From a virus: a stretch of 64,000 bases of DNA. Of this stretch, positions 6,097 to 62,274 are shown piece after piece; positions within the stretch are counted from its first letter, which is position 1, and each line of letters starts with the position of its first letter. The translations under genes were made by a program, and so were the position numbers. The notes beneath the pieces were generated by a model. It made no database searches. It was given only the letters and a program-made list of their open reading frames with translations, and had not been told where the DNA came from. Location: the IMG/VR virus record IMGVR_UViG_3300045988_097776; one strand, 5' to 3'.

Positions 6097-6120
6097 TTTT
6101 GTGCAAAATGTTGCACAAAA
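6097..6120. promoter_or_regulatory. perfect 24-bp palindrome TTTTGTGCAAAA-TG-TTGCACAAAA (operator-like) upstream of the promoter array
   Basis: The left half is the exact reverse complement of the right half. The TTGTGCAA motif recurs near other early promoters. Confidence 0.55.
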
Positions 6121-6159
6121 CGGAATCAAATTTTTTGTGCAACATTTACAAGGAAAAAA

Positions 6160-7590: not shown

Positions 7591-7720
7591 ATAATAATAC
7601 CATAGTTTCAGGATAATTGCAAGATGGCATTTTGCACAAGATTTCTGCTTGAAAATTGTGCAACATTACAACAGAAAAAAATGCGGCCCGCGGCGCTCAA
7701 GCGCGGGCCGCTGATTTTCT
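7591..7720 (-). promoter_or_regulatory. promoter-terminator cassette: TTGCAA-17-TATTAT promoter, TTGCACAA/TTGTGCAA dyad motifs and a GC-rich terminator hairpin
   Basis: About 75 bp are nearly identical to 9041-9120. Hairpin GCGGCCCGCGGCGCTCAAGCGCGGGCCGC. Confidence 0.55.
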
Positions 7721-8796: not shown

Positions 8797-9021
8797 CTAC
8801 CTGTTGCCTATCTTGTCAACAAGTTTTTCAAAGAAATTTTTATGCCGATATACCTTATAAGGCATTGACGTATAATCCACATAAATTAGAGGGTCGCGCA
8901 AAAGAATAGCTTGCATATAGATCCCATAATTCTCTGGGGTGGTAGTACCACCAAATTGGCGGCGGTAGATTTCAGCCACAGTTAAACACTCATTAGGCCG
9001 AATAAACTTTGAAGGTTTCAT
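8797..9021 (-). CDS. hypothetical protein, 74 aa
   Basis: ORF track. Promoter TTGCAA-17-TATTAT at about 9041-9075, a duplicate of the 7600 cassette. Confidence 0.4.
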   Translation of the reverse strand: MKPSKFIRPNECLTVAEIYRRQFGGTTTPENYGIYMQAILLRDPLIYVDYTSMPYKVYRHKNFFEKLVDKIGNR

Positions 9022-9204
9022 TTAGTGTCCCTCCTTCTTTCTGTACTAATAATACCATAATTTAAGGATAATTGCAAGATGACATTTTGCACAAGATTTC
9101 AAGTCAAAAATTGTGCAGAACTTACAAACAAGAAAACTCGGCGCGCTGTGAGCGTCAGCGCGCCGTCGAAATTTTGGTATAAAAAAAGAGGGCCGAAGCC
9201 CTCT

Positions 9205-9684
9205 TTAATTTTCTGCAAATTGAGCTAGAAATTGCGCAGAAAGTCGAACCATATCATGCGCTGATTCTTTATCGTTTTTATAGCAAATAAAGCCGATTAC
9301 CTCACCTTCTGCAATAATAGGAGTAACAAACAACGATTTTCCCTTCCATTCAGTACCCCAATTACGAATATTGAACCATTCATCCGGGGTCTTTGACATT
9401 CCGAAGGGGCGAGGGCCGCACAAAAGACTTGAATTATCAAAAACCGATGCTAAAATGCCGTTAATGCTTAAAACTTTTTGAATATGTGCGGCCTGAGGAG
9501 CAAAAGAAGATAGTAGGGAATATTTCTTGAAAACCACCCCGCCATCTTCAATAAAGATTTCTAGCGGGTCGCCTTCCCGAATATTCATATTCCGACGAAT
9601 TTCCTTAGGAATTACTACCCGGCCGAGATCATCAATGCGCCGCACAATGCCAGTTACTTTCATTTTTTTTATTAGAGAGGGCAA
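9205..9684 (-). CDS. SpoVT/AbrB-family transcriptional regulator (swapped-hairpin N-domain plus GAF-like C-domain)
   Basis: N-terminus MKVTGIVRRIDDLGRVVIPKEIRRNMNIREGDPLEI is the AbrB/MazE/SpoVT signature. Length 159 aa. Terminator at 9170-9205. Confidence 0.7.
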   Translation of the reverse strand: MPSLIKKMKVTGIVRRIDDLGRVVIPKEIRRNMNIREGDPLEIFIEDGGVVFKKYSLLSSFAPQAAHIQKVLSINGILASVFDNSSLLCGPRPFGMSKTPDEWFNIRNWGTEWKGKSLFVTPIIAEGEVIGFICYKNDKESAHDMVRLSAQFLAQFAEN

Positions 9685-9714
9685 GGCTATTGCTTGCCCT
9701 CTCTACCTCCTTCC

Positions 9715-10110
9715 TTAAAACTCCTTGCGCAGTTCCTCAAGCATGGCTGTTAAGGTGTTCATATCTCCACCCATTTCCAATTTGACGCACATGAGCCGGG
9801 TCTGCTCGTTAATCCATGTGTTAATCTCTGCGATTTCATCATCCATTTTTTCCTTGGCCGGAGTATAAATGCCGCAAGTGCAGGTCTGGATGACATTCTC
9901 GCAATATCTGGAAGTCTTATAGCCCTTAGCCTGCATTTCCGCCTGGATAGTATCGCCCAGCTCATTGGCCGACTTGACGATAGCCTCCTTAAAAGCCTCC
10001 AGCGCGTCGAACTCTGGCTGATACCTCTCCCGGATAGCCGCCTCCTTACAGGCAGAAATCTTGCGAACCTCGTCACGAACATATTCTTCAATTCTCTTAG
10101 TAACACGCAT
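9715..10110 (-). CDS. hypothetical protein, 131 aa
   Basis: ORF track. Consensus promoter TTGACA-17-TATACT at 10176-10204 and terminator at 9680-9715. Confidence 0.45.
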   Translation of the reverse strand: MRVTKRIEEYVRDEVRKISACKEAAIRERYQPEFDALEAFKEAIVKSANELGDTIQAEMQAKGYKTSRYCENVIQTCTCGIYTPAKEKMDDEIAEINTWINEQTRLMCVKLEMGGDMNTLTAMLEELRKEF

Positions 10111-10344
10111 TTCTAAAAACTCCCTTTCTGTTTTAATTTGAGAGGTTTTACTCGTTTCCCCTCTTTACATTTAATAGTATAGCAGATTTCGGGAGAAGTG
10201 TCAATCGTCAAAATGCACAACATTTGCAAACATATTTTGTTGAAACTGCTAATCATAGAAAATTCGGATCGCGCCAACCCTGCGCGATCCGCCCAATATT
10301 ATGCAAATAAAAAAGAAGCTCCCGGAAAACCGGGAGCATTTCTT

Positions 10345-10584
10345 TTACATCATAGGGAAATCAATGCCAATTTCGTTAGCTCTGCGGTCAGCCTCTTCGT
10401 CGAAGACCGCCTTCAAAATAGTGGCCGCGTCATCGGGAGTACAGGTATCTTCACGCAGGAACTTCCCCAAAGACTGAACCAAAGCGGAGTCGGCCGAACT
10501 CCGGTCTATCAAACGCATTGCTGTATGAAGAGCAATCAGACTGTCCCTATCTTCCTCGGTCATCTTGGGCATCTTGATAGTCAT
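10345..10584 (-). CDS. hypothetical protein, 79 aa
   Basis: ORF track. Promoter TTGACA-17-TATAAT at 10635-10663. Terminator GCTCCCGG-AAAA-CCGGGAGC at 10318-10345. Confidence 0.45.
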   Translation of the reverse strand: MTIKMPKMTEEDRDSLIALHTAMRLIDRSSADSALVQSLGKFLREDTCTPDDAATILKAVFDEEADRRANEIGIDFPMM

Positions 10585-10838
10585 AACATACTTCCTTTCT
10601 GGTTTTATAGAGTTTTCCTTCTCTTGATGGTATTATTATATCATAAAGGGTTGGATTTGTCAACCCTTTATATCGGAGTATTTATAATATATCCAAACAT
10701 TATAATTTCGGCGGCGAAAAGTATAGCAAGCAGGAAATGGTTTTTTATTATAGCGGTCACATACTGGATAGTCAGGCAAATGGCAAGAACAATTATGATA
10801 AAAGTGGTCATGCTAGTTCCTCCTGCGGTAGAGAGGGA

Positions 10839-11078
10839 TTATACCCTCTCTACCTCGATAATTTCCATGTCGAAATTTTCCCAGCAGGCCCCAAGGAGCA
10901 TATCATGCCGCAGGTCGTTTTCGCTTTCGTAGTCCATATCTTCCAGAATGTCCTGCCAGTTATCGGGATTATATTGCTTTTTCAGCCAGTCCCAACCGGC
11001 GCCACGAGCCAGCCGCAGGTCATCAGATACACAGATAATATTCTCACGATTATCAGCCATAACCACATAGCTTTTCAT
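10839..11078 (-). CDS. hypothetical acidic protein, 79 aa
   Basis: ORF track. Promoter TTGACT-17-TATACT near 11121-11160. Confidence 0.4.
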   Translation of the reverse strand: MKSYVVMADNRENIICVSDDLRLARGAGWDWLKKQYNPDNWQDILEDMDYESENDLRHDMLLGACWENFDMEIIEVERV

Positions 11079-11324
11079 TTTCTTTTACTCCCTTTCTTGA
11101 GGGCTTTTGTTCTCCCCTCTTGATGGTTTAAGTATATCAGAATGAGAGAGAAAAGTCAAGCGATTTTGGGAAATTTCTTTCCGTCAATTTCACCAATAAA
11201 TCGAGCCAAAATTTGTGCAAATTACCTCTTGACAAAAAATTCCGGCCGCTGCGCTCATGCGCGGCCGGCTGAACAATATATTTTGAATTGGAAAAGAAAT
11301 TCCTCCCATTTTGGGAGGAAAATC

Positions 11325-11462
11325 TCAATCTACATATTCTCGATTTAAAACTTTTACAACCTCTTCAGGTTTACGTCGAGACCGGAAAAGAGCATCTTCA
11401 TAGGAATAACCAGAGATATTGTCGGTCGAGCCATTTTCAAGCAAAATCTCAAATTCATACAT
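11325..11462 (-). CDS. hypothetical small protein, about 45 aa (internal start of the listed ORF)
   Basis: A promoter -10 and TSS fall inside the listed ORF. AAGGAAG RBS before the internal ATG (MYEFEILLENG...). Confidence 0.3.
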   Translation of the reverse strand: MYEFEILLENGSTDNISGYSYEDALFRSRRKPEEVVKVLNREYVD

Positions 11463-11518
11463 ATCTCTCAACTTCCTTTCTTTTGATAACTTAATTTTAA
11501 CATAAGAATTTCGGGAAG

Positions 11519-11755
11519 TCAATCGGTACTTTCAACAATTTTCATTCCATTTGCTTGTATAATTCGCATAGCTTCTTCAAGAGAAGTATTGTCAACGGAG
11601 CCACAGTCGATACAAATATATTTTCTGCCATCCTTTACCATAGTAGTGAAATAATATTCTTGACCAGAAACAAGGCCCATCTACTCTCGTAGTCTTACGG
11701 GAATCATGATGCGCCCACTTGAATCCAATTTCCTTGAGAAAGTAGTTTCTTGCAT
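11519..11755 (-). CDS. AbrB/MazE-family DNA-binding protein, 78 aa, with 1 in-frame TAG
   Basis: Manual translation: MQETTFSRKLDSSGRIMIPVRLRE[Q]MGLVSGQEYYFTTMVKDGRKYICIDCGSVDNTSLEEAMRIIQANGMKIVESTD. The GRIMIP motif is the swapped-hairpin signature. Confidence 0.55.
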
Positions 11756-11843
11756 TTTGCTAAATAAATTCTAGTGACCTAGGTTCGTGCGAAAAACGAC
11801 TCCATCACGGGAATCGCCGATTTGTAACAATCGGAGGGAATAA

Positions 11844-11960
11844 TTACCACTCGCAAGGCATTTTCTGGCAGAACTGAGCCATAGGACAATTCTTACAAGA
11901 ATCCTAGTTCAAACAGAACTCCAGAATGACCGCAAGAGCTTTCAGCACTTCTAAGGTCAT
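11844..11960 (-). CDS. small Cys-rich protein, 38 aa, 1 in-frame TAG
   Basis: AAGGAG RBS. Product MTLEVLKALAVILEFCLN[Q]DSCKNCPMAQFCQKMPCEW. Confidence 0.35.
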
Positions 11961-12135
11961 TAGAAAACTCCTTTCTTTATTTTTCTATATATATTATAAA
12001 ATATTTTTTTAAAAAAAGCAAGGACTGACTTATGCCAGCTCCAGCCTCTGTAACCAGATAAGGTGATATTTCCCCAGTCTTGCCAAAACTGTTCCGTATC
12101 CCTTATTAGTCCAAACAGTGGAACCAATAGGATAT

Positions 12136-12387
12136 TCACGCGGAAGTCTCTCGATAGTCATTGATAATCCCCTTTTCTGTAAAGAATCCGACAAGATGTT
12201 CTGCTGCACTGGACTTATGCGGAGTTATCAACAACCACGCACCGCGAAGATTATCAATAGTCGATAAAGACCAGTCCGCGCCCATCTGACTAATTAAGCA
12301 CTCGAAACTTGCTCGATCCTCAAGAGAGTTAAACGAAACTACATATTTTCCCATGCGGAAATCGACCTCCATAGAATTTTTTATCAT
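12136..12387 (-). CDS. hypothetical protein, 83 aa; a coupled 43-aa ORF follows at 12004-12135
   Basis: ORF track. ATGA start/stop overlap at 12133-12138 suggests translational coupling with the downstream small ORF MTIERLPREYPIGSTVWTNKGYGTVLARLGKYHLIWLQRLELA. Confidence 0.4.
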   Translation of the reverse strand: MIKNSMEVDFRMGKYVVSFNSLEDRASFECLISQMGADWSLSTIDNLRGAWLLITPHKSSAAEHLVGFFTEKGIINDYRETSA

Positions 12388-12426
12388 GGGGAGTGGAAGT
12401 CATAGACCTCCACTCCCGCAGGTTTC

Positions 12427-12666
12427 TTATGCGTTAATGTAGATATTAACGCCACCTTCTTCTCTCATTTCAATCTCAGTCACCTGCTTCTTGAACAGGG
12501 CGCTGAGGTCATCGCCATAAAAGTCACCGCCGAGCTGGAGCTTCCATTCCTTGTCAAACCGGAAATGTGCGCCGGTATTGCTGTCGATTACCTGAATAGC
12601 CGCATCCTCTTCCAGACAGAAAGAGTATTGCCGGAACAAAATCACAACGTCTTTGAAGCACACCAT
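12427..12666 (-). CDS. hypothetical protein, 79 aa
   Basis: ORF track. Promoter TTGACA-17-TATATT at about 12705-12745. Confidence 0.4.
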   Translation of the reverse strand: MVCFKDVVILFRQYSFCLEEDAAIQVIDSNTGAHFRFDKEWKLQLGGDFYGDDLSALFKKQVTEIEMREEGGVNIYINA

Positions 12667-13508: not shown

Positions 13509-13772
13509 TTACTTGATAGCTTCGCCGGTAGACAGGTCTACAATCCAATAGTCAGGATTGACAAGCTCATGGTCTACTCTCCATCTTGCGTGTGCAAAAG
13601 TAGACGGCTCATAGTATCGCATTTTGTCACCCACTAAAACCTGCAACTGATACCTCATAATACCGCCTTCTTTCTTTTGATTATTATAACCCTGCCTTGC
13701 CTTGGGTTTTGCAAGGCAGGGTTTATAAACTACTGCTGATTGAGTTCTTTTTGCTGGTCTTTCGTTGCCCAA
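13509..13772 (-). CDS. hypothetical protein, 87 aa
   Basis: ORF track. Confidence 0.35.
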   Translation of the reverse strand: MGNERPAKRTQSAVVYKPCLAKPKARQGYNNQKKEGGIMRYQLQVLVGDKMRYYEPSTFAHARWRVDHELVNPDYWIVDLSTGEAIK

Positions 13773-14170
13773 TCAAGAGAGGTTCTGACCGTCGGACGCT
13801 TGCGGTATTGCTCCGCCTCTGCCTTTGTGCCGCCTTTAGCTAAAGCGTAGGCTTTCCAGTCTATCGCTCCTTTAGCGGTAGTCTCTTTATAGACCACCGC
13901 ATGAGCGGCGCCCTTTATCTGGACTGTGCCGTACAGATAAGAGGTCTTATCCGTGGTCTTGAACTCTTTCCTCAAACGGGTGAAAAGCTCTTTCGCTTTG
14001 GCCTTGGCCGCTTTCTCTGCAACCTCTGCCGCCGCTACTGCTTGCTTAGCGGCTAGGTACTCCATGATGACCTTCCTATCATCATTGGCAAAATCAATCT
14101 TTTTCATACTCTTTTGACTCCCTTTCTTTTTGTGGTGTGATTCTCTTTTGTTCTGTCTGTATTGTATCAA
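13730..14170 (-). CDS. hypothetical protein, 146 aa (coiled-coil N-terminus; possibly a Gam-like nuclease inhibitor)
   Basis: ORF track. Consensus promoter TTGACA-17-TACAAT at about 14150-14200; a second TTGACA-17-TAAACT at about 14270-14300. Terminator at 13690-13730. Confidence 0.4.
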   Translation of the reverse strand: MIQYRQNKRESHHKKKGSQKSMKKIDFANDDRKVIMEYLAAKQAVAAAEVAEKAAKAKAKELFTRLRKEFKTTDKTSYLYGTVQIKGAAHAVVYKETTAKGAIDWKAYALAKGGTKAEAEQYRKRPTVRTSLDWATKDQQKELNQQ

Positions 14171-14759: not shown

Positions 14760-15197
14760 TTAATGGTATAATTGATATTTTCTGCCAATCTTATCAATCT
14801 CCTCAGCTTCCATTGGCCTAAATCCAATACAAGTGAGAGTCCCTTCAGGACTCTCTTTTTCCAGCTCTGTCCTGCAAGCATCGTAAATCAAAAAGTAATC
14901 TTTATACTCCTCCATACCGAGCTCTTTAGCTGCTTCGACCGCCCGCAATAAATCATTCTTATTTTTCGCTCGACAAACAACTTTAGTTTCTGCTTCTATT
15001 ATCCAATTATGGTATAAATCTGTATCGAGACTTACATTCACATGATACATAATACCATCTCTTTCCCTAACTACTTCTTTGCTTCCCCAAAGTATTTTCT
15101 CTAAAAGAAAAGCAATAGAAGCATGGGAAACTTGTGCGGCCAGCTTACCTGGAGACATATTTAAATCTTTTCTAGCTATAATTAACTGTTTATACAT
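14760..15197 (-). CDS. peptidyl-tRNA hydrolase, PTH2 family
   Basis: IIARKDLNMSPGKLAAQVSHASIAF matches the PTH2 R-x-D-L-x-M-x-x-G-K-x-A-A-Q-x-x-H-A core. The C-terminal half aligns with the human PTRH2 fold (…KVV..A.....L......A...G…). Confidence 0.8.
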   Translation of the reverse strand: MYKQLIIARKDLNMSPGKLAAQVSHASIAFLLEKILWGSKEVVRERDGIMYHVNVSLDTDLYHNWIIEAETKVVCRAKNKNDLLRAVEAAKELGMEEYKDYFLIYDACRTELEKESPEGTLTCIGFRPMEAEEIDKIGRKYQLYH

Positions 15198-15946
15198 TCT
15201 TTACCTGCTTTCAAAAATGCCCTAAAATTCTGGGAGTTGCGGTCAGGAATTGCAAAATAAATATTTGGAATATTATAATTGCGGGCTGCGCCTATGAGCA
15301 AGGTTGCGACCGTATACGGATCTTGCATAAAAACTCCACAACCCCAGGCTCCCGCGATTAGATTTTCCACACCGTTTTCCTCAGCAATCTGATACATAAA
15401 GTGAATTCGATCTTCAAGAACTCTATCATTCTCGCTCTTACTCACACTCTGGTATCTATGCGCCGTTCGGAAATTCGGGGCCGCACAAGTTATAATATCT
15501 GCTTCCTTTTGTTTGTCATTGCGCTCGAATACTACGCTAGGAGAATACAGCGCTCTATTTAAATATAAAGCCTTATTTAATCTCTGTCGATTCCATGCGT
15601 AATACGTTTCATCAAAAGCAAGAAGGATAGGGTAAAGATTGGATTCATGACAAAGAGCCTCTTCCTGCGCGGGACTACCTCCTAGAAAAAATCCACCCGG
15701 GTTTTTATAACTGGCGTAGTTAAGAATTGCTGTTCTACCATTGTTAGATAAATTGAATAGGCAAGATACACTATCCATATCTGTTAGAGTAAAAGCTGGT
15801 TTCTGATTGCCGGATTCATGCTGTGTAAAAGAATCTGGACTATATACATATGTGCGCTCGATAGATAATTTAGTGTTTGCGGCAAGTCTAGTTTTAATAT
15901 CTTCATAATGCGCTCGTGCCTTGATTGCGCGCTCTTGTTTTGTCAT
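15182..15946 (-). CDS. macrodomain-fold poly(ADP-ribose) glycohydrolase-like protein (bacterial PARG/DUF2263 family)
   Basis: NPGGFFLGGSPAQEEALC matches the bacterial PARG signature G-G-x(6-8)-Q-E-E. Length 254 aa. AAAGGAGG RBS. Overlaps the PTH2 start, so the two probably form an operon. Confidence 0.55.
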   Translation of the reverse strand: MTKQERAIKARAHYEDIKTRLAANTKLSIERTYVYSPDSFTQHESGNQKPAFTLTDMDSVSCLFNLSNNGRTAILNYASYKNPGGFFLGGSPAQEEALCHESNLYPILLAFDETYYAWNRQRLNKALYLNRALYSPSVVFERNDKQKEADIITCAAPNFRTAHRYQSVSKSENDRVLEDRIHFMYQIAEENGVENLIAGAWGCGVFMQDPYTVATLLIGAARNYNIPNIYFAIPDRNSQNFRAFLKAGKECINS

Positions 15947-16145
15947 CGCGGCCTCCTTTTATAAAAATGCCGTTGGGCAAAATTAAATAATTGTCTTATT
16001 TTATTTTTCAAATAAAGTGTGTTGAGTTTTTAATTCCTCGATCTTCTACTTTAACTCTTTGTTTTCTTTTATTACTTTTGCATATTCGCATGAATCATCG
16101 CATCTAATTGGATCATACTATTGATGCAATCTAAGATAACAATAA

Positions 16146-16505
16146 TCAATGCATGGGTTCATATTTACACCCCTTTATTCTACAATCTAGTAAACACTGT
16201 CCTGTAGCTCCATCACAGGGAATTGCATCAGGGTAATCCTCAAAATAAGACGAAGCTAATAGGACTTCATACCCGAGTTCTCGCAATATTCTTTCTGCGA
16301 TATATCTATTCCTCAGCTTTACCCATTCTTCTCTATTTATTTTTGTTTCTCTGTATATTTCTCTGGATTTCTCCATATCTACTGTTATGCTGCCATCAAT
16401 ATTAGTCTTAAATGTTGAATCCTGTGTACGATAAAATTCTCGAAAAGGATTTTCAATATGAAGAACCTCTCTAGCATAATTATCAAAATCTTCTGAGAAT
16501 TTCAT
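16146..16505 (-). CDS. hypothetical protein, about 119 aa
   Basis: ORF track; the likely start ATG at 16503-16505 overlaps the FolD stop (TAATG). Confidence 0.4.
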   Translation of the reverse strand: MKFSEDFDNYAREVLHIENPFREFYRTQDSTFKTNIDGSITVDMEKSREIYRETKINREEWVKLRNRYIAERILRELGYEVLLASSYFEDYPDAIPCDGATGQCLLDCRIKGCKYEPMH

Positions 16506-17296
16506 TATCTTCGCGCCTGTTTCGCTAACTATAAGCAATTTTTCATCAACCCCAATCTAGTCAATAATCCCACCCCTCCGGGCACAGGAGTTGACCACAC
16601 TTCATTTCTCTTTGCAATATTTTCAAGTTCAACAAAATCGCCTTGAATAAAATTCGCCTAATTTCTACGAATACCAACATCAACAACAATAGCGTGAGGG
16701 CAAGCCTCTCTTGTCAAAGTAAAATCTCCAACTGCGGATACTACTAAATCTGCTATTCTTGCTAAATAAAGCTTCGCATTTACATTTGTTTTACTGTGAC
16801 AGATAGATACAGTCATATTTCTCGCCAACAACTCTTTCGCCATTGGCTTACCAACTATATTACTTCTACCTAATATTAAAGCACTTTTACCTTCATACTT
16901 AAAACCACAGTCATCAAGATAGTCTACTATTCCTCTTACCGTTGCCGGTAAAACAAGAGTAGAAGAAGTTAAACCGTCGCAGTCTTTTATCGTAGGAATT
17001 ACATCAATAGAAAAAGAACTCAATGAATCTCTTAGTGGCATTTGTGCTATAATACAATCAGTATCTATACTATTTATGTAATTATTTAAATCTGCGGGAG
17101 TCCAGTGTTCTGGAACTTTAATCACGCTTACTGGCCATCCTAATTCATTAAAGTCGTCTACTTTTTTCTATATATAAATCTAATTTCCGGCATCCCCGTT
17201 AGTTGCATCAATTATGGTCAATGATGGCTTGACATCGGACTGCCGCAATTCATCTTTCTATTGTTTAAAATATTCTTTTATGTTAATCTATTGCAT
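16505..17296 (-). CDS. folD: bifunctional methylenetetrahydrofolate dehydrogenase/cyclohydrolase FolD, 263 aa, 3 in-frame TAG
   Basis: The listed 155-aa ORF ends at a TAG. Reading through gives ...GRSNIVGKPMAKELL...VVDVGI...PVPGGVGLLT, the FolD C-domain. Upstream through two more TAGs gives the N-domain MQQINIKEYFKQQKDELRQSDVKPSLTIIDATNGDAGNQIYIQKK. Confidence 0.8.
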
Positions 17297-17621
17297 CTGG
17301 TTCTAGCCCCCATGGATCATCAGTATCATAATCAATCATATCATAGAATGATATTTTGTTATTAGGCGTTATTTCTAAAACCTAATGTGGGATACAACAT
17401 ATTTCATAATCAGAATCTCTATCTAAATTATATGAAGCATAAATATGCAAAGCCGTTGGTCTTGCATTATTGATATTTTGAACATCCCATAAGTCAACAG
17501 TGTTTTTATGTCCAAGTATGTCTGTTAGAACTTCTGGCTATACTGCTATGCTTATAATTAAAATGTTAAAGTAATACTATGCTCGTTTTGGTAATTCAGA
17601 ATAGGGCGTATCGAAAAACAT
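17283..17621 (-). CDS. hypothetical protein, 112 aa, 3 in-frame TAG; first gene of the leftward early transcript
   Basis: GGAGG RBS 10 nt before the ATG (cat at 17619-17621 on plus). Reading through TAG gives one ORF ending at TAA 17283-17285 and overlapping the folD start. Confidence 0.45.
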
Positions 17622-34838: not shown

Positions 34839-34877
34839 TTATTTGTTTTATCGTAGAGATAAAGGAGGAAAAGGACT

Positions 34878-37800
34878 GTGGCTAATAAAAGATTAAACTA
34901 TTAGATTGGGTTTACCGCTGACGCGAGTCAGCTAAAAACCTCTGTTAATGAAGTTATAAATAGTTTATAGAAATTAGGCAATTAGCCATCTATTTCTAGT
35001 GAACTTCAGTAGGCATCTTTGGCGGCCCTTGAATTGAGCCGTAATCTTTAGATGGCTACTAATGGAAATTCAGGTAAGTTAGATTTGACTGCTTTTAATG
35101 ATAGTTTAGTAAAAAGCGGAAAGACTTTAACAGACTATTATAATCAACTAAGCAAACTGGGAATTTAGGGGCAAGAAACATTCTTAAATCTTTCTCAGGC
35201 TATTATGGCGGCGGAAACTCCGTTAATCAGAACTAATAAGTTAATGTCTGATTTGTGGATTACAATGAAAAATACGGTTCGTTGGTAGATTACAGCAAGC
35301 ACTTTATAGGGTTTTATTGGCTCTTTAGAGACAGCTTATGGTTATGCAAAAGATTTAAATGAATCTCTGACAAACATTCGTATAGTTACTGAAAATTCTG
35401 CCGAGGATATGGCTGTTTTTGCTAAGTAGGCTAACGAAGCAGCTAAGGCATTGAGTACAACTACAGTAGATTATACTGACGCAGCTCTGATTTACTATCA
35501 GTAGGGCCTTACTGAGTAGGAAGTTTTAGATAGAACTGAAACTACTATAAAAATGGCAAACGCCGCGGGTGTTAGCGCTTAGACTGCATCTGACTAGTTA
35601 ACTGCGGTATGGAATAACTTCTATGATGGAAGTAAAAGTCTTGAGTATTATGCAGACGTCATGGTGCGCTTAGGTGCAGATACTGCATCAAGCTCTGATG
35701 AAATTTCAGAAGGTATCTAGCAGTTTGCCGCAGTTGCAGAGACGGTAGGTTTGAGTTATGAGTATGCCGCGTCTGCGCTTGCTACTGTTACTGCTACAAC
35801 TCGTGAATCTGCGAATACTGTAGGTACTGCATTTAGAACATTATTTGCACGTATTCAGGGCTTAAATCTTGGAGAAACACTTGATGATGGAACTACTCTA
35901 AATAAATATTCTTAGGCTCTTGATAAAGTTGGAATTAACATCTTTGACGTTAATGGAGAAATCAAGACTATGGATACTTTATTAGATGAAATGGGAGAGA
36001 AATGGGAAACTCTATCTAATGATCAATAGATTGCATTAGCACAGACTGTAGCTGGAGTACGTCAATATACTCGTCTTATTGCTCTTATGGATAACTGGGA
36101 TTTCTTCTAGGAAAATTTGGAGAGTTCTTATGGAGCAGAAGGATCTCTACAAGAACAAGCAGATATTTATGCTGAATCTTGGGAGGCGGCAAGAGATAGA
36201 GTAAGAGCATCCGCGGAAGATATTTATGATAGTTTAATAAATCCTGATTTTTATATTGGGGTAGATGATGTTCTTAGTCCTATTTTAAGTACAACTGCTG
36301 ATATTATTGATGGTTTAGGCGGAATGTCTGGCGTTTTAGCAACAACTGCTTTACTGATGAATAAGGCTTTTGGTGATAAGATTGCGCAAGGAATGAGAGA
36401 TATTGCTTCTAATCTTGGTATTATCGGATAGAGAGAAAAGGATAGAGCGCAAACTTTGAGAACTGAAGCCGCATAGATGGCTGATATTATCGCGAAATCC
36501 GCACTTGATAATACTATTTAGGGATAGATGGTAAATACTCAAGCTTAGATTGTTTAGCTTGAAGGAGAAGCGTCCGCTGCGGCCACACAACTATCTGAGC
36601 GCTAGGCTGGTATTTTACAACAAGATTTAGATAGAGTAAAGGTTTTATAGACATAGGTTAATTTAATTGGGTAGTAGGTTAGCAAATCAGATGAACTTAT
36701 TACAGCTTATACAAATAGTTTGTCTGAGCGTTTAGTTCCCAATAAAAAATGGAAGGATAATCTACTATCGGCGCTTGTGTTAGAAGATGAAAATAAATTT
36801 TCTTTTTATGAGGACATAGAAACAGAAATTCTCTATAGTTCAAAGACAAATTAGCAAGCCCTTTAGAGTTTAATTGACAAATTAAAAGTGGCGAGCGTAA
36901 GTCTTTCTAAGTTTTAGCAAGTATAGAAATTAGTTGGTTCTGGAACCAATGAAATCTCTCAAGAAACTATTAATTTAGTAAGAAGCCTAAATCTTTTTGA
37001 AGGTGCTCAAGATGCAACAAATTAGGAGATAATAGAATATCTTACTACCTCTTAGTAGTTTTAGGAAGCATTAAAGGGGGCAGAATCAGACGTTGCTGCA
37101 TTAAATAGAGTTATTACTTCTTTAGGTGATGGTTCTGTTAAATTTAAAAATGATCTAAGTGGTCTTGTAGCAGCTTTTAAGAATAATGAAATTAGTGTTG
37201 AGGCTTTTAGATAGGGATTAGAATTATTACAGTAGAAAACAAAAGAAATTAGTGAGGGGTTAAAGAATAACAGATATGCTACTTTAGACTGGGCTGAGAC
37301 ATTGGTTAAAGTAGGAACCACTTTATCGCAAGTTACAATGGGAATGACAAGTATTAATTCCATGTTCTCTACTTTTACAAATTCTGTGAAAGAGGGAGAG
37401 TTTACTGTTGAAGATTTTACAGTTATTCTTACTAACTTTGGAATGTTATTACCAACAATCTCTACCTTGTTTAAAAAGCAGGCATTACAAAATAGTTTAA
37501 CTGCAATATCGTATTTAACAGTTGGAGCTTCAGCTAAAACTGCGGCTGCTGGTATTACTACTGTTGGTGCGGCTATCTCAACTGCTTTACCACTTATTGG
37601 GTTAATCACTTTGGGAGTAACCTTACTTGTTAATGTTATTTCTCTCATTATTGTTACGGAAGAAGAGGCTAGAGAAAAAATATCTAGTGCTACCTAGGCT
37701 TATGAGGATTAGAAATCTGCATTAGAATCTTTAAATTCTGAATTATAGACAACGAAAGATAGAATAGAAGAATTAAATAATTAGGATTCTTTAAGTATAG

Positions 37801-40800
37801 TCGAACAAGAAGAATTAGAAAAACTTAAATAGGCAGAATCTTCTTTGTAGAGATAGGTTGAGTTACAAGAGAAGTTAACAGAAGAAGCGCAAAAAGCCTA
37901 GGCAAAAACTATCGAAGAGAATTATGATAAATCTACTAAGAGTTTGGCAGGAGGACCAGATTTAACCTAGTGGAGAAGTTGGAATGAATACAATGGAGAC
38001 TAGGACTGGTTTAAAGAGTTAGAATAGAGCATGGATTTAAATGATCCAAATGCTCAATTTGTACTTGAATAGAATAGATATACTTATAAAGATTAGTACG
38101 TAGATGCAGACACTTGGTTTAATAGTATTACTTAGGGCCTTGATAAAAATTCTGATGCCTATCGTGATTACTTAGTAGAGTATCAAGATTGGGTTACTCA
38201 AAATGAATAGATTACGGCACAGTGGGTAACTGACAATTCTGAAGCTATATAGCAAGCAGAAGATGATTATGCTGCATATATTAAATCTGTTACTGACGGG
38301 GTTATTGAGTATAATCCAGAAATGATAGCTTCAATGCAGGAGCAGTTATCTCTTATTCGTAAAAATCTTTATGGCAGTCAAAGTGAATATGAAGAGGTTA
38401 TATTAAAACCAATTTTAGATAACCAATCAGTTAAATAGATTTCTACTTAGCTTTATAGCACTTTGGCTAGTAGTGATATTAGTGCAGCCTCTGGTTTGAT
38501 AACAGAATCCATTAAAAATGAATTAATGTTAGCTGGAGTCAGCGTAGATGAGTTTTTAACTTTTGTAGATAGCAGAGTAGATGAAGCAAAGGAAAAAGTA
38601 GAAAGTAAATTTAGTGATTTTGATTTTGATTCTCTATCAAATGAGGATTGGGAAATCCTTATGGATGTCAATATAGATAATTTTGATGCGGTTGAAGAAT
38701 TATAGGAATTTTTAGATAATTATAAAATTAATGAAATAAATATAAATGTAAAGGGAATAGACGACTTAAAATCTATATTGGAAGAATTAAATAATAGTTA
38801 GAGTGCTCTTGAATCTGCCTTATAGTCATATAAGGATCAAGAAGGCTATCTAACCATGGATCAAGTTCAAGAACTCATTAATGCAGATGAAAGATATGCT
38901 TAGTATATTGTTAAAGTTGGAGATGCGTATAAACTAACAAATTAGTCTCTTTAGACATTTTTAGATTCTGAACGACAAGAAGAGCAAATTCTTGATGCTA
39001 CAATAGAATCTATGAAAGAAAAATATGGGGTAAATACTGATTATCTCTAGAATTATATTAATATGTGGGATGAATTAGTATCGCGAGCCAGTGATTCAAA
39101 TGCAATAAATGATTATACGTTTACAAGTGAAACTGATGTAGAATTGTTTAAAGAGAGAACATAGGCCCTTAGTGATAATGCGAAAGCGTATCAGGAGGGG
39201 GCAATATCTGCCCAAGAATATTTTGATACGATTAATAAAAGATTAAGTAATATAAATGCAGGCTTTCATAGATTAAACGAAGAAATTGACGATAATATAG
39301 AAGAAACTGATTTATATGAAGCTACTTTGGTCGCTGCAACCGGGTCTATAGGGGATGGACTGATAGATTTAAATAAAAAGTTTAAATCTGGAACCATCAA
39401 TATGGATGATTACTATGAGGGAACAATCGCTGCCACGAAAGCATTAATTACGGCTTAGTCTAAATTAAATTAGAATATTACAAAAAATACAGACGGAGTT
39501 TGGGAACTCAGAGATGGAGTAGATCAAACTACAATTTCTGAGGAAGAATATGCCAGAACCATGTCTGATATATCTAATTTAAATACTTGGGAAAAACAAG
39601 TGAGCGATGCCCAAGACATGATGGGAATTGTAAATAGTTTAGTAGATAATTACGATTACTTATTAAACTATGCTGATAGCTTTGGAGCGATAGATTTTAC
39701 CATTGATAATAATTTCGATACTACTGCGACAGAATTTTAGGCAATGGTATCAAGTATTGGACAATAGCTCGTAGGACTAGAATAGACTAATAACGAATCT
39801 TATAAAAGGATTCTCTAGGGTGTTCTTGATTAGGGAATAACGCTAGCAAATGGACTAGATACAAGCGCCGATGCTTTAATGCAAGCAATGTCCACTGATG
39901 CTAGTATCGCTGGAGCCGTTATTAATTCTACTATGTCCGAGAGTGCTAATACAATTAGCTCAACTTCATAGGCGGCTGGGGCTGTTCTAACAGCACTAGG
40001 AGATTTAATTTCTAATTTTGAATATGATTTAGGTTTTACTCCATATGTAAAATCATGGGGAAAATTATAGATAGATGATTGGCTAGCTGGCAAAGCGGAT
40101 CTTCCTTTTGAGCTTCCCACTCTAGGATTAAAAATTTCCGGCGAGGGCGGAGATGCTATTGGTAATTTTACTAATGCTCTAAAAGAAGCTGGTTCATATT
40201 TATCTTCTTAGGGTACGGGATCTGGATAGAATGGTATTTTTGATTATGGTTAGGAGCCATTTGCATTTGATCCTGATGGAGCATTAGATCCGAATAGAAT
40301 AGCAACAGACAATATTAGAAATAAAGATTCTGGCGGAGATAACGAAGGTACAAAATATGATGCCGAAGATGAAAAAACTCTTGAAGATATAGAAGATAGA
40401 TACCATGAAATAACTCGTGAGATTGAGAATTAGAATAATTTATTAGATGATATTGGTAATAATATAGATAGAGCATATGGAGCGAAGAAATTATAGGCTT
40501 ATTAGAAAGAGCTTCAAGAGTTAGAAAAACAGCAAGCTAATTATAATAAGATGCTTGATGAGGCTGAGACCTATCTTGAGAAAGATAGATCAGACCTTCA
40601 AGGATTATTCAACAATTCTCTTACTTTTGATGAAAATGGAGAAATTGAAGGTTATCAAGACGTTCTTCAATCTATTGTTGATGATTATAATAATAACTTC
40701 TTAACCGATTACAACGCTTTCTTATTAATGTTTAGCAGTCTTACTAAAGATGAATAGGAGGCTAGATAGGCAGAATATGATAGTTGGCAATTACAAAAAG

Positions 40801-43577
40801 AAGTTGCTGATGAATTATTCTAGGCTCGTTAGGACGCTTTAGCTCAATATGAAGAAACTCTTGACAAGATTCAAGATGTAAAAGATGAGCAAGAAGAGCT
40901 AGAAAGAAATATTGCAGATAATAGATTAAATTAGATTGAATATAAACTTGAAGTTGCGATAGATATAAAAGATGCTAAAGATGCGGTTAATGAGCTAACA
41001 AGACAAATAGCAGAATCTTTTGGTGATGAGCTAACTCATGGAATGGAAGTCGCTCGTATTGATAAAAACAGTATGAACGAGAACATTGAAATCATCAAGA
41101 GCTATGAAGAAGCCCTTAAAAGTTATCAGGAAGAATTAGCTAATGCCACAGATGCGACTAATATTGATGAGATTGTAAGTAAGTTATCTGACTTACAAGG
41201 TAAAATGATTTCTACCGCAGAGGCTTTGCTTGATTGGGTAGAAGGTCTTGAAGAAATGCTACCAGATGCATTAGATGCCGCGTCAGAAAGATTTGCAGCT
41301 TTTACTGATTAGCTTGACCATAATGAATCCGTTCTAGGACTTATCAAAGAACTATATGCTCTTTAGGGAGTTACATATAAGACTGAGGAAGGATTTGAGT
41401 AGCTTCAGGAAGTAAGCGAAGAAACTATGAAGGCTCAGGTCGCCAATGCGCAGCTAAATAAACAATGGTACGATGGAATCCGTCAAGAACTATTGGAAGC
41501 TCAAGCTGCACTAGACGCATTAGGCGGAGATGAAACGGATCCTGCATATGATGGTTTAAAAGCTAATAGAGATGCTCTACTAGAAGAATTTAATGAAGCA
41601 CAAGAGGCTATGTTAAGTTCCGCGCAAGCTGCTATGGAGACTGCTTAGGAGATGTATACTCAAGCTATTGAAAGAGCAGTATATGAATTTGGATAGGCTG
41701 TTTCTGGTGGAGTAGGATTAGATCTACTACAAGACAAATTCGATCATTATATCGAACAAGAGGATAGATATTTAGATAAAGTAAATGAAGCGTATGAGGT
41801 ATCTTCTTGGTATAATAAACTACAACAGGATATTGATAAGGCTACTAACTCTAAGATGAAAGATTAGTTAAAATAGCTACAAGAGGAAATTGATATACGT
41901 AGAGAGAACAATACCTTATCTGAATACGATTTAGAAATTCTCGAAGCTAAGTATAATGTTCTTTAGGCTTAGATGGCACTTGAAGATGCTCAAAATGCGA
42001 AAAATCAACTTAGACTAGTGAGAGATAGTCAAGGTAACTGGAATTATCAATACACCGCAGATGCGAGCCAGATAGCTGACGCAGAATAGAATTTGCTTGA
42101 TGCGGAGAATGAGTGGTATAATATAGCAAAGCAGTAGGTAGAGGATGTTACAGGAGAGATTATTTCTACTTGGCAAGAATGTCAAGATAAGATAAAAGAA
42201 ATCTATTCTGATATGACCTTGACTGATGAAGAAAGATCTGCCCGCGCGCAAGAAATCTATTCTTATTATACGCAGAAGGTTAAGGACCTAGAGAACGAAA
42301 AATAGATCGCTATTAAGGATATGACCGAAGCCGGCAATAAAGCTTTAATTGATATGGCTATTGTTGCGGGAGACGAGGTAAGTGACCTAACTGGAATTAC
42401 AAGTCAAGAAATTCAAGATATTATAGCTAACTCTGGCTCTAGCATTATTGATTTGTTACTATCAGATAACGAGTAGATTCAAGATATAGTAGGAAGTAAT
42501 ACAAAACTTATTGACCTATTTGATAACGTATTTGCGAAAGACTTAGCGAATATGACCGCTAATGCCGGCAACTTTGAAGAGTTTTTATCTAATGCAATGG
42601 ATGAAGCTAGCGGAGCGATGGAGGATTATCAAACTACTGTTTCTGGAGTAGCCGATTAGACTGGAACAAGTCTCGATGATTTAAAAGATTATATCGACGA
42701 TGTTTCAACTTCTACTGATTTGTGCTCTGAGGCTGGATCAAATGCCGTTACTTAGATGTTAGAATAGATAAGCACTATTCAAGATTTAAGTCAAGAGTAT
42801 TTAGATATGGCCGATTCAGTCAGAGAATATATAAGAGCGCTTGAAGAAGCCGCTAGAGCTGCTGGTAGCACAATAGAAAGTGCAGGAAGTATAGATAAAG
42901 ATGACTTACCTTCTTCTGATTCAAGTCAATCTTCTGATACTGATAAAGGTAACTCAGGTAATAGTGGTAGTGGATCTTCCAGTAGTGGAACTGGAGGAGG
43001 TAATGGAATCCCCGAAGTAGGAGATGAAGTTATTTATACTGGTGGAACTTACTATCATGATTCTTATGGCACTGATCCTGCTGGTAGACGCGGTCCAGGT
43101 AAAAAGGTTAGAATAACAAACATAGCTAAGGGTAGACCTTATCCAATCCATGTACAGTCCAATAATTCCGCTTATGGATGGCTAAAAGAAAGTTAGATAA
43201 GTGGCTTCGATACTGGAGGATATACTGGAGAATTTGATAATGCTAAATTAGCTTTCTTACATGAAAAAGAGTTAGTTTTAAATCAAGAGGATACGAAAAA
43301 TATCTTGGCGGCGGTCTCTGCTATGAGAGCCTTTGGACCTAGTTTTATAGCCTCTATTGAGAAAACTCTTGACGGGAACGCACTATCTATTTCTAGTATT
43401 ATGGCATCTAGATTGGGAACTAATACCTAGATTGCGCCGACAGATAATGTGGTTTAGCCAAATATAAATATTGAACGAGTTGAATTCCCCAATGCGACAT
43501 CTTCTGATGAAATTCAAGATGCTATTCGTAGTTTGGCGGATGATGCTACTCAATGGGCGAATAGAAGAAAAGAATAA
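34878..43577 (+). CDS. tail tape measure protein, about 2899 aa, many tens of in-frame TAG
   Basis: All listed ORF fragments in this span (36117, 37302, 38463, 40551, 41043, 41427, 42807) are in frame 0 and join across TAGs. It carries TMP motifs (…SEGI[Q]QFAAVAETVGLSYEYAASALATVTATTRESANTVGTAFRTLFARIQGL…, …[Q]TVAGVR[Q]YTRLIALMDNWD…) and the canonical C-terminus …SGFDTGGYTGEFDNAKLAFLHEKELVLN[Q]EDT…. Confidence 0.85.
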
Positions 43578-57319: not shown

Positions 57320-57959
57320 AGTTTAATTCAATAGCTTTTAATTTATCTATTGAATCAGCTTCGAATATCTAAGTTTTATATTCTTGCATTAAATGATATT
57401 TGGGATATACCACATTTGAAATAGCTAAACTTAGAGCGGATAATTGCTCTAAACTCCATGGCACACATTCTTCGTGTCGAGCGTGCCACTCAAGCGTAGG
57501 ATTTTCTACTTCAGCCGCGAGAGCGACTTGATATTGATTGAGATTTAAGCTAATCTCAGACTGGTCCTCCTACGTAATTCCATATTCTTTTCCATCAACC
57601 CAAGTTAGTGGGTGGGTAGCAAGATACTCTGCGAATAGTTTCTTGTTTTCCTCTTGTTTGTCATACTTTGCCTAATCTAAATCAGAAGTGAATGTTCCAT
57701 CTTCTTGATTATATATTGAATAATTAGGAGTAACATCTGATGGAATTGTTTCTATCTCTAATACTTTTACAGCATTAGATTGATTTAATACATCGGCTTT
57801 AATTAGAGTATAATGTGTATCTCCATTTGAGCCGATAACCCCAGTTCCCTCTTCTTCCTCGCAGGCAACGACAATACCATTTGAGGATTGCAGTTTAATG
57901 TAACGTGCTTCTGAAAGAATATCAACTACTACATTCTCTCTATTTAATAGAATATACAT
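57297..57959 (-). CDS. DUF4376-like protein (tail-fiber assembly/chaperone-like), about 220 aa, 4 in-frame TAG
   Basis: The listed 95-aa ORF continues through TAGs (…ATHPLTWVDGKEYGIT[Q]ED[Q]SEISLNLN[Q]Y…). Family assignment is from memory and tentative. Confidence 0.3.
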
Positions 57960-58135
57960 TACTTTATTTCAACTCCTTTAAATAATGAACGAAAATAATT
58001 GTCCATATCTTGAATTATATAAAAACAAGTTCCTTTAGAAATATGTGCCCTCCAACCTTGATAGGATTTCTAAATTTCATCTGTTGAAATTTTACCCTCT
58101 AACCATAGCGCTTGCATTTTCTTTAACTTTCTGCG

Positions 58136-59176
58136 CTAATGAGCCACTTTCTTTTTAAAAGGAATTTGTATTATATGATTAGTGTCTGTGAGATAAAAGT
58201 TCCACTTTAAGTATTTTAATGGAGCGTGACGTTTGCCGTCCGCATGAATAGGAGAGATTCTAGTAATAGTAGTCTTTTTCTTATTCATCTTTAATCCTTG
58301 CTTATTTAAGCGAACTTCTATTCTCTTTTCACATTCGGCTAAGTATTGACTGTCATTGTGGAATAAATATAAATCATCCATATAACGACCATAATACTTA
58401 ATATGTAACTCTTCTTTGATGAAGTGGTCAATTTCGTTCAATGCTAGCAATGCGAATAATTGTGATGTTTGACTTCCTAATCCAAGACTTTTATTATCAT
58501 ATTCATAGTATTTGCGGCCAGGCTTAAAATTAGTGGTACTAATTCTCGTGTATTTGTGCCGTTTACTAATATAATAATCTTTTCCTGGTATGGGAGAGGA
58601 ATCTTTTGTTAGCTTAAAAGAAAATGTATCTATTAAATAACAGCATAGTTGATAAATTCTTTTATCTTTTATCAAACGTTTAGCCGCTTTCTTTAAAGAT
58701 TTATGGTCAATAGAATCAAAATATTTTTGAATATCAATTCTTAACCCATAAAAATCTTTTCCTAATCCATATTCTCTATGAGCTTGTTGAAGATGTTTCT
58801 TTACTCTTTTTAAAGCAAAGTCTATTCCTTTTCCTCTTAAAGTAGCACAATTATCGTAGATAAATCTAGGAGTTAATTCTGGTAATAAAACTTGTTCACA
58901 TAACGCATTTTGTACCAGTCTGTCGTTGATATGACACGCTCTTATATCTCTTGGTTTGCCTCGTTCGATTATCGAAAAACAACTAAACACAAGCTATTCG
59001 TATTCACACGCTCGCAGATCAGCTTCTGTTTTTAAAATTGTTTCTATCCTATTCTCTTCAAAATTAATTGTACTATCTTTCCATCGAACGTTTCGGCATA
59101 CCTTATAAGACGCATCATACATAGTGTCAAAACTACAAAAACGCTCGAAAGTAGTATCTTGATTTATTTCAGACAT
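58136..59176 (-). CDS. diversity-generating retroelement (DGR) reverse transcriptase, 346 aa, 1 in-frame TAG
   Basis: The two listed ORFs (59176-58994 and 58990-58136) are one frame joined by TAG 58994-58996. RT motifs FDSIDH and YMDD (GRYMDDLYLF). The DGR-specific motif LGLGSQTSQ (I/LGxxxSQ) replaces the group-II-intron QGxxxSP. AAGGAG RBS 6 nt before the ATG. Confidence 0.85.
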
Positions 59177-59485
59177 ACTTTCTCCTTATCATGTAGCTAT
59201 AGTAGTAGCTACTCGAGCTCCACGTCTACAGTCTTACTTTATCCACTTTTTCAGTGAAATGGTTAAGTTCTCCTTAGATGAAAAGGCAGATCTACCTATA
59301 GTATATTATTCGATAGTTGTAGAGCAAAGCTCTTTAATGGTCTCTCAATCTCTTCCCCACATAGTGAGTGCAATCCAGAGTAAACCTTAATTAGATGGAT
59401 AATAATATACTCCGGGGTACTATTTAGGCGTTGCTCGTTTGCGCTGCTCCGCAGCTTAACTCGCAACATGATAGCTCCATCTAAT
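59177..59485 (-). ncRNA. DGR spacer region between TR and the RT (expected to be transcribed with TR as the TR-Sp template/primer RNA)
   Basis: About 310-nt non-coding interval between TR and the RT start. Its role is inferred from DGR architecture, not from the sequence. Confidence 0.4.
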
Positions 59486-61949: not shown

Positions 61950-62274
61950 ATTATTTACCTCCTTCTATCTAGCTATTGTTTCAAACAAATCTAAACTACT
62001 AGATAGAAGGTCGAGGATGGAAGCGATCTTCGCTCCAGTCTTTTAGAAAGCCATAAACAATTTCCGAGAAAAAGTACACTTTTTAACAGGAAAAATACTT
62101 TTTCTTCCTAGATAACAAAAAATTGGGAAAAGGGTAAGAAACCCTTTTCCCAAAAGTGAGTATCTTACTCTTTTCAAATATACTTGAAAAAGAGTATAGA
62201 TTGATTATATATGTTTGACCAAGTTCAGTAAAGTGTACTTTTTCAAAAGTTTTAGATGAAAGGAGAATTATGCT

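Follow-up and report, generated by a model that had tools for sequence, protein, structure and literature searches.

AbrB and Abh of Bacillus subtilis are transition-state regulators. Gut phages whose hosts form spores have been reported to carry homologues of spoVT and abrB (Schwartz et al. 2023, PMC10294663). In recoded phages, in-frame stops delay late functions, the recoding-timed examples being lysis genes and, in Agate phages, a homing endonuclease within an early gene (Borges et al., bioRxiv 10.1101/2021.08.26.457843). The human-gut phage phAss-1 reads TAG as glutamine (Gln) and has three tRNA-Sup-CTA genes; for it and the proposed Phassvirus group, genomes of about 135 kb, large tRNA arrays with tRNA-Sup-CTA and predicted clostridial hosts were described in a paper that makes no mention of AbrB or SpoVT genes (Babkin et al. 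2023, PMC10607447). Both elements are already in print: the use of recoding to time translation, and abrB/spoVT homologues on phages. Our literature search found no report of a regulator gene with a reassigned stop; to our knowledge, the timing role proposed for recoding concerns late and lysis genes, and the route from the code switch back to transcription is undescribed. Here we examine two AbrB-type genes in a 64-kb stretch of phage DNA (IMG/VR record IMGVR_UViG_3300045988_097776; "the window" denotes this whole stretch): gene A, which is SpoVT-like and free of TAG, and gene B, a short gene with one in-frame TAG that stands next to a small Cys-rich open reading frame (ORF) with a TAG of its own. 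Coordinates of these and other features are collected in Table 1.

Codon use in the two AbrB-type genes

The window (36.6% G+C) comes from a tailed phage of roughly 145 kb that infects gut Firmicutes and decodes TAG as Gln in its late genes. Treating TAG as sense raises the cover by ORFs of at least 100 amino acids (aa) from 33.8 kb under the standard code to 81.8 kb, and the longest ORF from 1.4 to 8.7 kb. The terminase, portal, capsid and tail-like genes, all on the plus strand at about 17.7-56.8 kb, are rich in in-frame TAG. At late-gene TAGs of the window the partner column holds Gln or TAG in 144 of 184 cross-lineage comparisons; on this comparative evidence TAG is shown to stand for Gln in the phage group. 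Late genes are recoded in all seven lineages (A to G) although unequally, TAG taking 5-12% of the Gln codons in lineage C and 55-62% in lineage A, to which the window belongs. By its terminase search alone the phage is placed near Enterococcus phages EF1 and H1, Geobacillus phage E3 and phAss-1 (44-51% identity; 44% to phAss-1); blastn of the region and megablast of a 24-kb late stretch against GenBank phages gave no useful match.

The minus strand at about 3.2-16 kb, which we label early, carries short genes that all have a strong sigma-70-type promoter and a terminator-like hairpin of their own (a scan found 13 terminator-like sites in 9000-12500 against 2.9 expected). TAG was counted in curated window genes matched in each locus and in the public collection's own gene calls. 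In some 25 early families TAG is absent from the Gln codons of every lineage, the exceptions to this avoidance being gene B, three genes beside the divergent junction (16001-17621) and two stop-like TAGs in lineage A. Within about 13 kb of minus-strand early genes with next to no TAG otherwise, gene B and the Cys-rich ORF are the only two to bear it. Fisher's test of this unit against the other early genes gives p = 0.01-0.07 per lineage on small counts, and the collection's independent gene calls agree in L051-L054.

Both genes lie where the initial annotation had put them, on the minus strand, and both belong to the AbrB/SpoVT swapped-hairpin superfamily, as profile and structure comparisons support; a hidden Markov model search of the window with profiles of both families found no further AbrB-like ORF. 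Gene A had been drawn from 9205 to 9684 as a SpoVT-like protein with a normal TAA stop. The likeness and the stop (terminal TAA at 9205) stand, but 9684 begins with TTG, and ATG 9663 is the likely start because the N-terminus MKVTGIVRRIDDLGRVVIPKEIRR matches the canonical AbrB/SpoVT one. Gene A contains no in-frame TAG. It exceeds the cut-offs of the Pfam family MazE_antitoxin/SpoVT_AbrB (PF04014, 43.7 bits against 24.7) and of TIGR01439 (50.2 against 28.3), and stays below them in Pfam SpoVT_C (17 bits against 27.5) and GAF (17 bits). With 96.4 bits it does not reach the 235.9 bits of the SpoVT equivalog TIGR02851 (NCBIfam), and by this profile gene A is not a SpoVT equivalog. Its homologues include 180-aa clostridial SpoVT proteins with PF15714 (about 40% identity over 100% of the query). 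Phmmer against PDB returns B. subtilis SpoVT (2w1t, 2.9e-22) with a weak but correctly placed second match in the GAF domain. The AlphaFold2 model of gene A (mean predicted local distance difference test, pLDDT, 85; predicted template-modelling score 0.76) has the same protein as its top Foldseek match (2w1t_A, E 2.4e-10, 173 columns, 35% identity), and its C-terminal half matches the GAF domains of CodY, fRMsr and KdpD. Sister phages join the N-terminal domain to unrelated C-terminal domains, and contig L001 holds an additional paralogue; no TAG was found in any of these homologues or in the paralogue.

Gene B reads MQETTFSRKLDSSGRIMIPVRLRE up to its TAG and continues MGLVSGQ... after it. Beyond the swapped-hairpin domain the protein has a CxxCG motif (ICIDCG), which is invariant, and about 28 aa of C-terminal helix; a Shine-Dalgarno sequence is missing ahead of the ATG. 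Gene B matches PHROG 4681 over residues 1-62, spanning the TAG (E 7e-8), its family profile matches the AbrB N-domain in PDB (7.5e-5), and hhalign pairs it with the gene A/SpoVT family over 49 columns (85% probability, E 6.2e-6). These profile comparisons support gene B as a divergent AbrB-type protein, homologous at profile level over the whole domain. Among Foldseek matches AbrB N-domains are best (1yfb_A, probability 0.99, with a modest E of 0.019), and the monomer model contains the helix at 20-26 and the hairpin at 36-49, with weak N-terminal strands. Tblastn found no gene B homologue in GenBank phage records; phage contigs that carry the gene are binned with metagenome-assembled genomes (MAGs) of Oscillospiraceae and Eubacterium.

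The initial annotation had staked its reading of gene B on homologues of the read-through form, and such homologues exist: 43 database proteins of 76-80 aa, aligned end to end with the query, have Gln in the TAG column. Lineages B, C, D, F, G and most of E have CAA or CAG at codon 25 (28 IMG/VR loci), and TAG reappears there in L015/L019 and the L135/L136 group. Other lineages have a lone TAG elsewhere, at codon 32 (GqEYYF) or codon 40 (RqIDGR), both Gln columns in relatives. Across 116 loci (IMG/VR together with ENA, NCBI and MAG contigs, which are not independent samples), representing 42 distinct sequences, TAG occurs solely at codons 25, 32 and 40 and never more than once per gene; the 84 loci with TAG are spread over different lineages. 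Because the TAG columns differ between lineages, parsimony requires at least three to four independent gains: at codon 25 in lineage A and its relatives, at codon 32 in B, at codon 40 in most of E, and at codon 25 once more in a sub-lineage of E. In L050, a more distant contig, the module is without TAG, and TAG serves there as a stop codon.

The ratio of nonsynonymous to synonymous rates (dN/dS) in gene B is 0.03-0.2, with constraint on both sides of the TAG, and 0.05 between the window and L002, which represent two TAG-bearing lineages. Conservation in the family is highest in the 24 codons before the TAG, which in that pair differ by 4 nonsynonymous and 13 synonymous changes. Since both halves are under purifying selection, the full-length read-through protein is, by these alignments, the selected and functional product. 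Nor is the TAG an assembly accident: the codon recurs in L001 (IMG/VR) and in L143-L147 (ENA), and P0024, the 53-aa product of standard-code gene callers, has 42 member sequences on 14 contigs.

The Cys-rich ORF adjoins gene B in every lineage. The initial annotation had placed it downstream; in the direction of transcription it lies upstream, and it has an in-frame TAG as well. Between the window and L013 it shows, by eye, about 17 synonymous changes and one amino-acid change, and TAG exchanges with CAA/CAG at two Gln columns, codons 19 and 33. Each TAG-bearing copy uses one of these columns (NqD in lineages A and B, CqK in E), and the lineages with TAG in this ORF are those with TAG in gene B. 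Its 138 database homologues come from the same phage group; Pfam and NCBIfam gave no family match.

Table 1. Features of the window around genes A and B, with the share of Gln codons written as TAG where counted
Feature	Position	Strand	Size	TAG/Gln codons	Remarks
Terminator-like hairpin and T-run	9185..9206	minus			Directly 3' of gene A
Gene A	9205..9663	minus	152 aa		AbrB swapped-hairpin, residues 1-50; GAF-like, residues 51-152; TAA stop
131-aa ORF	9715..10110	minus	131 aa		Immediately 5' of gene A, with which it probably shares a transcript
45-aa ORF (MYEFE...EYVD)	11325..11462	minus	45 aa		Downstream of gene B; conserved; TAG-free in the window
Gene B	11519..11755	minus	78 aa	1/4 (window)	ATG 11755; TAG 11683-11681 (codon 25); TGA 11521-11519
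In-frame TAG of gene B	11681..11683	minus			Codon 25, in helix of swapped-hairpin domain
Tandem hairpins	11792..11834	minus			11834-11817 and 11816-11797, then UUUUU 11796-11792; terminator/attenuator-like
Cys-rich ORF	11844..11960	minus	38 aa	1/3 (window)	MTLEVLKALAVILEFCLN[TAG]DSCKNCPMAQFCQKMPCEW; good Shine-Dalgarno; TAG 11904-11906
Promoter-like site of Cys-rich ORF/gene B unit	11993..12021	minus			TTGCTT-17-TATAAT; the hairpin before it ends the upstream gene
Other early genes				2/90 (window)	
Junction genes	16001-17621	minus		7/15 (window)	
Late ORF	34863-43577	plus	2904 aa		103 in-frame TAGs
Late genes				13/26 (window), 37/62 (L001)	

Timing of the gene B unit and competing explanations

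The leftward block can be translated by the standard machinery of the host, because it is almost TAG-free, and gene A could thus be made at once after infection. Before Gln-charged tRNA(CUA) is present, ribosomes would stop after 24 residues in gene B and after 18 in the Cys-rich ORF, release factor acting at codon 25 and codon 19, respectively, and neither fragment would be able to fold. The full-length proteins would then appear later than those of their neighbours, despite the host-type promoter of the unit, and gene B may subsequently influence transcription, for instance by closing early promoters or aiding the late programme. We put the probability of this whole explanation, an immediate SpoVT-like gene A and a suppressor-dependent, delayed gene B unit, at roughly 0.6; taken by itself, delayed synthesis of gene B and the Cys-rich protein is likely.

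Sister phages have a tRNA(CUA) gene (for example L043:8938-9013). The window holds no tRNA gene, but the lineage B contig (146,360 bp) has an array of about 30 tRNAs that starts some 9 kb past the left end of the window's equivalent, with tRNA(CUA) at its far end (84,660-84,735), on the early-gene strand and 37.4 kb downstream of gene B. The acceptor stem and 3' end of this tRNA match those of the phage tRNA-Gln(UUG). Lineage C likewise has a tRNA(CUA).

Several observations weigh against the delayed expression of gene B as an AbrB-type regulator. The suppressor was sought by a walk along sister contigs that stops short of the lineage of the window itself, and lineages D and E showed no tRNA(CUA) in the syntenic place. 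The label "early" itself derives from strand, promoter/terminator cassettes and TAG avoidance. Of the two genes for which the initial annotation had proposed searches with MazE_antitoxin and SpoVT_AbrB, only gene A passes: gene B stays below the curated cut-offs of PF04014 (18.3 bits against 24.7), MraZ (21.2 against 23) and TIGR01439 (17.5 against 28.3), and its monomer model is moderately confident (pLDDT 71). Gene B lacks TAG in the recoded lineages C, D, F and G and in some members of E, and since these lineages keep the gene, TAG is dispensable for its function. Further TAG-bearing genes in the leftward arm (16001-17621 on the minus strand, and plus-strand ORFs at 1.5-2.5 kb) make the unit exceptional locally and not uniquely. 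Finally, one TAG among four Gln codons is about what drift gives a late-type gene in lineage E.

The last points are those expected if TAG is simply tolerated: the unit would be needed at middle or late times, when TAG is decoded, so that TAG is not selected against and there is neither sensor nor switch. CAA/CAG-to-TAG changes (a single C-to-T step from CAG) would then drift in and out of the unit, and the consequence for timing would remain. The TAG position does turn over between lineages, several recoded lineages have none, the TAG share of the unit (2/7) is near that of late genes in lineage E (22-30%), and the leftward arm contains other TAG-bearing genes. We regard this account as possible, at somewhat less than even odds. 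It explains the data about as well as a developmental switch does, as proposed in the initial annotation, by which gene B would sense the suppressor through its own synthesis and divide early from late expression. In such a checkpoint selection would hold exactly one TAG in gene B and in its partner while the position drifts, and the pair would be made only after the amber suppressor has accumulated; the two proteins might form one metal-bridged complex via their CxxC motifs, and would couple the code switch to the transcription programme by shutting early or licensing late promoters. For selection of this kind, and against simple tolerance, speak the limit of one TAG each in gene B and the Cys-rich ORF (42 distinct sequences) where late genes of lineages A and B stand at 50-60% TAG, the invariant Gln66 of gene B, which is never TAG in the 42 distinct sequences, and the conserved host-type promoter, like those of the TAG-free neighbours. 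Lineage G, with 0/7 in the unit against 43% in late genes, likewise fits tolerance poorly. The switch is further favoured by the near-absence of TAG from the early genes around the unit and by the repeated rise of TAG at different Gln codons. A selected early/late switch in gene B is plausible on these patterns, yet we consider both it and the paired checkpoint doubtful.

One or both AbrB-type proteins may instead act mainly on host genes, for instance on clostridial sporulation or transition-state regulons. Over 50 residues the DNA-binding domain of gene A is, by eye, about 85% identical to that of B. subtilis SpoVT, and the cellular proteins that gene A resembles best are SpoVTs from Oscillospiraceae and other Clostridia. 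Phage contigs bearing gene B fall into bins of Oscillospiraceae and Eubacterium MAGs, and gut phages of spore formers have been reported with such homologues (PMC10294663). Against a host target stand the distance of gene A from the SpoVT equivalog cut-off and its shortened GAF domain, the swapping of its C-terminal domain among phage lineages, and the lack of cellular relatives of gene B past the generic N-terminal motif. From these sequence relationships we think a mainly host-directed role somewhat unlikely.

The suggestion in the initial annotation that gene B is the antitoxin of a pair with the Cys-rich ORF did not survive. The top PHROG family of both AbrB-like proteins is labelled "antitoxin", and MazE-type antitoxins share the swapped-hairpin fold, but searches of Pfam, PHROGs, NCBIfam and PADLOC matched neither flanking ORF (38 and 45 aa) to a toxin or defence family. 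The 45-aa ORF has a promoter to itself, and terminator-like hairpins stand between gene B and the Cys-rich ORF upstream of it; with no toxin found the idea fails, and a pairing with either ORF is very improbable. Hardest of all to credit is a true stop, with gene B a pseudogene or with a real product of 53 aa from the ATG that directly follows the TAG in the window, the ORF that standard-code callers report: both versions fail on conservation, as the 24 codons upstream of the TAG are the family's most conserved part, the fragment would be without half of the swapped-hairpin domain, other lineages have their TAG at codon 32 or 40 with no ATG after it, and lineages D-F have Leu after codon 25. 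Re-initiation at this ATG was rejected for the same conservation on both sides and the TAGs elsewhere that no ATG follows.

Neighbouring features of the leftward arm

The alignment shows no variation in the -10 hexamer of the unit's promoter-like site, and the -35 is TTGnTT in most lineages, TTTACT in L012/L015 and TTGCCT in L024; the -35 of the unit is too weak for a consensus scan to list it. No promoter motif recurs between the unit and late genes (TTATAATATATATAG; CTAGGTCACTAGAAT). The tandem hairpins lie in the 88 nt that separate the Cys-rich ORF from gene B, and lineages A, C, D, E and G retain both with differing stems; z-scores from folding single sequences do not reach significance, and "attenuator" is therefore a description only. 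Many database variants of the Cys-rich ORF (P0173, P0175, P0179, L001:9796-9912 and L015) have Tyr for Cys at differing cysteines, small in-frame deletions or a frameshifted C-terminal third, which is odd given the strong conservation. The 45-aa ORF has a promoter-like TTGACT-17-TAAAAT (11522-11494) and a terminator-like hairpin (11320-11300) of its own, and no family match in Pfam, PHROGs, NCBIfam or PADLOC.

L008 and L015 keep both the 131-aa ORF and its place beside the AbrB-type gene; the ORF has no family match in Pfam or PHROGs, and a promoter-like TTGACA-17-TATACT with TG extension (10204-10176) precedes the stretch that it forms with gene A. Between a strong Shine-Dalgarno sequence, GGAAGGAGG (9714-9706), and ATG 9663 of gene A stands a 12-bp hairpin (9674-9685 / 9693-9704), and its folding alone would bring the ribosome-binding site of gene A near the start codon.

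Further sequence features recur between early genes. TTGTGCAA dyads exist in the window, none of them at the promoter of the gene B unit. As inverted dyads of the form TTGCACAA-N15/16-TTGTGCA(A) they occupy early intergenic positions 6111-6142, 7632-7663 and 9087-9118 (three full dyads against 0 expected); exact half-sites number 10 against 2.0 expected, nine of the ten within 6-14.4 kb, and include 6099, 11213, 12778 and 14317. The spacers of the dyads at 9087 and 6111 hold a -35-like hexamer (TTGACT and TTGATT). Hairpins of about 10 bp with 8-9 G-C pairs, additional to the ordinary terminator hairpins and found despite the 36.6% G+C, lie in early intergenic sequence at 9139-9165, 10265-10291 and 11243-11268 (minus strand).

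Two early ORFs otherwise free of TAG, 8797-9021 and about 13730-14107 (minus strand), seem to terminate in TAG (8797-8799 and 13730-13732), to which an active suppressor would add short C-terminal extensions. Conserved small genes with TAG are found at 1551-2446 on the plus strand, and the junction trio includes a FolD-like gene (16505-17335). The early genes 14760-15197 and 15182-15946, both on the minus strand, have homologues in sister contigs with the Pfam domains PTH2 (peptidyl-tRNA hydrolase 2) and PARG_cat_microb; the first of these domains deserves notice in a phage that alters stop-codon reading. In the tRNA arrays, a sister contig (L041:2025-2340) has a transfer-messenger RNA gene with the tag peptide DNDYFENYLAA, and lineage E (L121:384-457, L122:310-383) a tRNA-like gene with an 8-nt anticodon loop, for which ARAGORN gives the anticodon "taaa". 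By eye, a reverse-transcriptase-like ORF at 57959-59185 (minus strand; YMDD and LGSQTSQ motifs) and beside it a 616-aa repeat-rich protein at 60192-62042 (minus strand), a possible target, resemble a diversity-generating retroelement.

Significance and comparison with known systems

Gene B offers a compact test case: a small, conserved gene of DNA-binding type with a single TAG, TAG-free surroundings and repeated acquisition of the codon. Under delayed expression, one codon change (TAG to CAG) or one supplied tRNA should shift the time at which its protein appears. If gene B regulates phage promoters, code switching would be part of a developmental circuit, beyond a passive block; otherwise the case still identifies the TAG-tolerant genes of such phages. 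Standard-code annotation, in any event, cuts a real regulator gene in two.

Gene A shares with B. subtilis SpoVT (2W1T) the full-length architecture of AbrB and GAF domains and a near-identical DNA-binding domain. It is shorter (152 against 178 aa), misses the equivalog cut-off, has its C-terminal domain replaced by unrelated ones in sister phage lineages, and belongs to an early-gene cassette of a phage, unlike the chromosomal sporulation gene of an endospore former. The first 49 residues of gene B align with the whole swapped-hairpin DNA-binding domain of B. subtilis AbrB and Abh (1YFB, 1Z0R, 2K1N) and keep its GR(I/V)xIP motif and helix arginines, and AbrB N-domains are its best fold matches. 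In contrast to AbrB and Abh, gene B scores under the family cut-offs, its C-terminal part consists of the invariant CxxCG and one helix, and it is encoded by a phage, paired with a 38-aa Cys-rich ORF, on an mRNA that needs TAG decoding. With MazE/AbrB-type antitoxins, the label of PHROG 4681, it has the fold superfamily in common, but a toxin partner was not found.

Among recoded phages, phAss-1 shares the reading of TAG as Gln and a 44% identical terminase, and is a distant relative only. The survey of Schwartz et al. (PMC10294663) covers phage-borne homologues, and recoding or a TAG-containing regulator is outside its scope. The genes described by Borges et al. resemble the unit in having a reassigned stop in-frame among standard-code genes, with translation expected to be blocked until the code switch. 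They differ in that the gated gene here is a putative DNA-binding regulator with a small partner, and not a lysis or structural gene, in the single TAG per gene whose position shifts between lineages, and in the phages themselves, the present group infecting Firmicutes and being related to phAss-1 and Enterococcus phage EF1.

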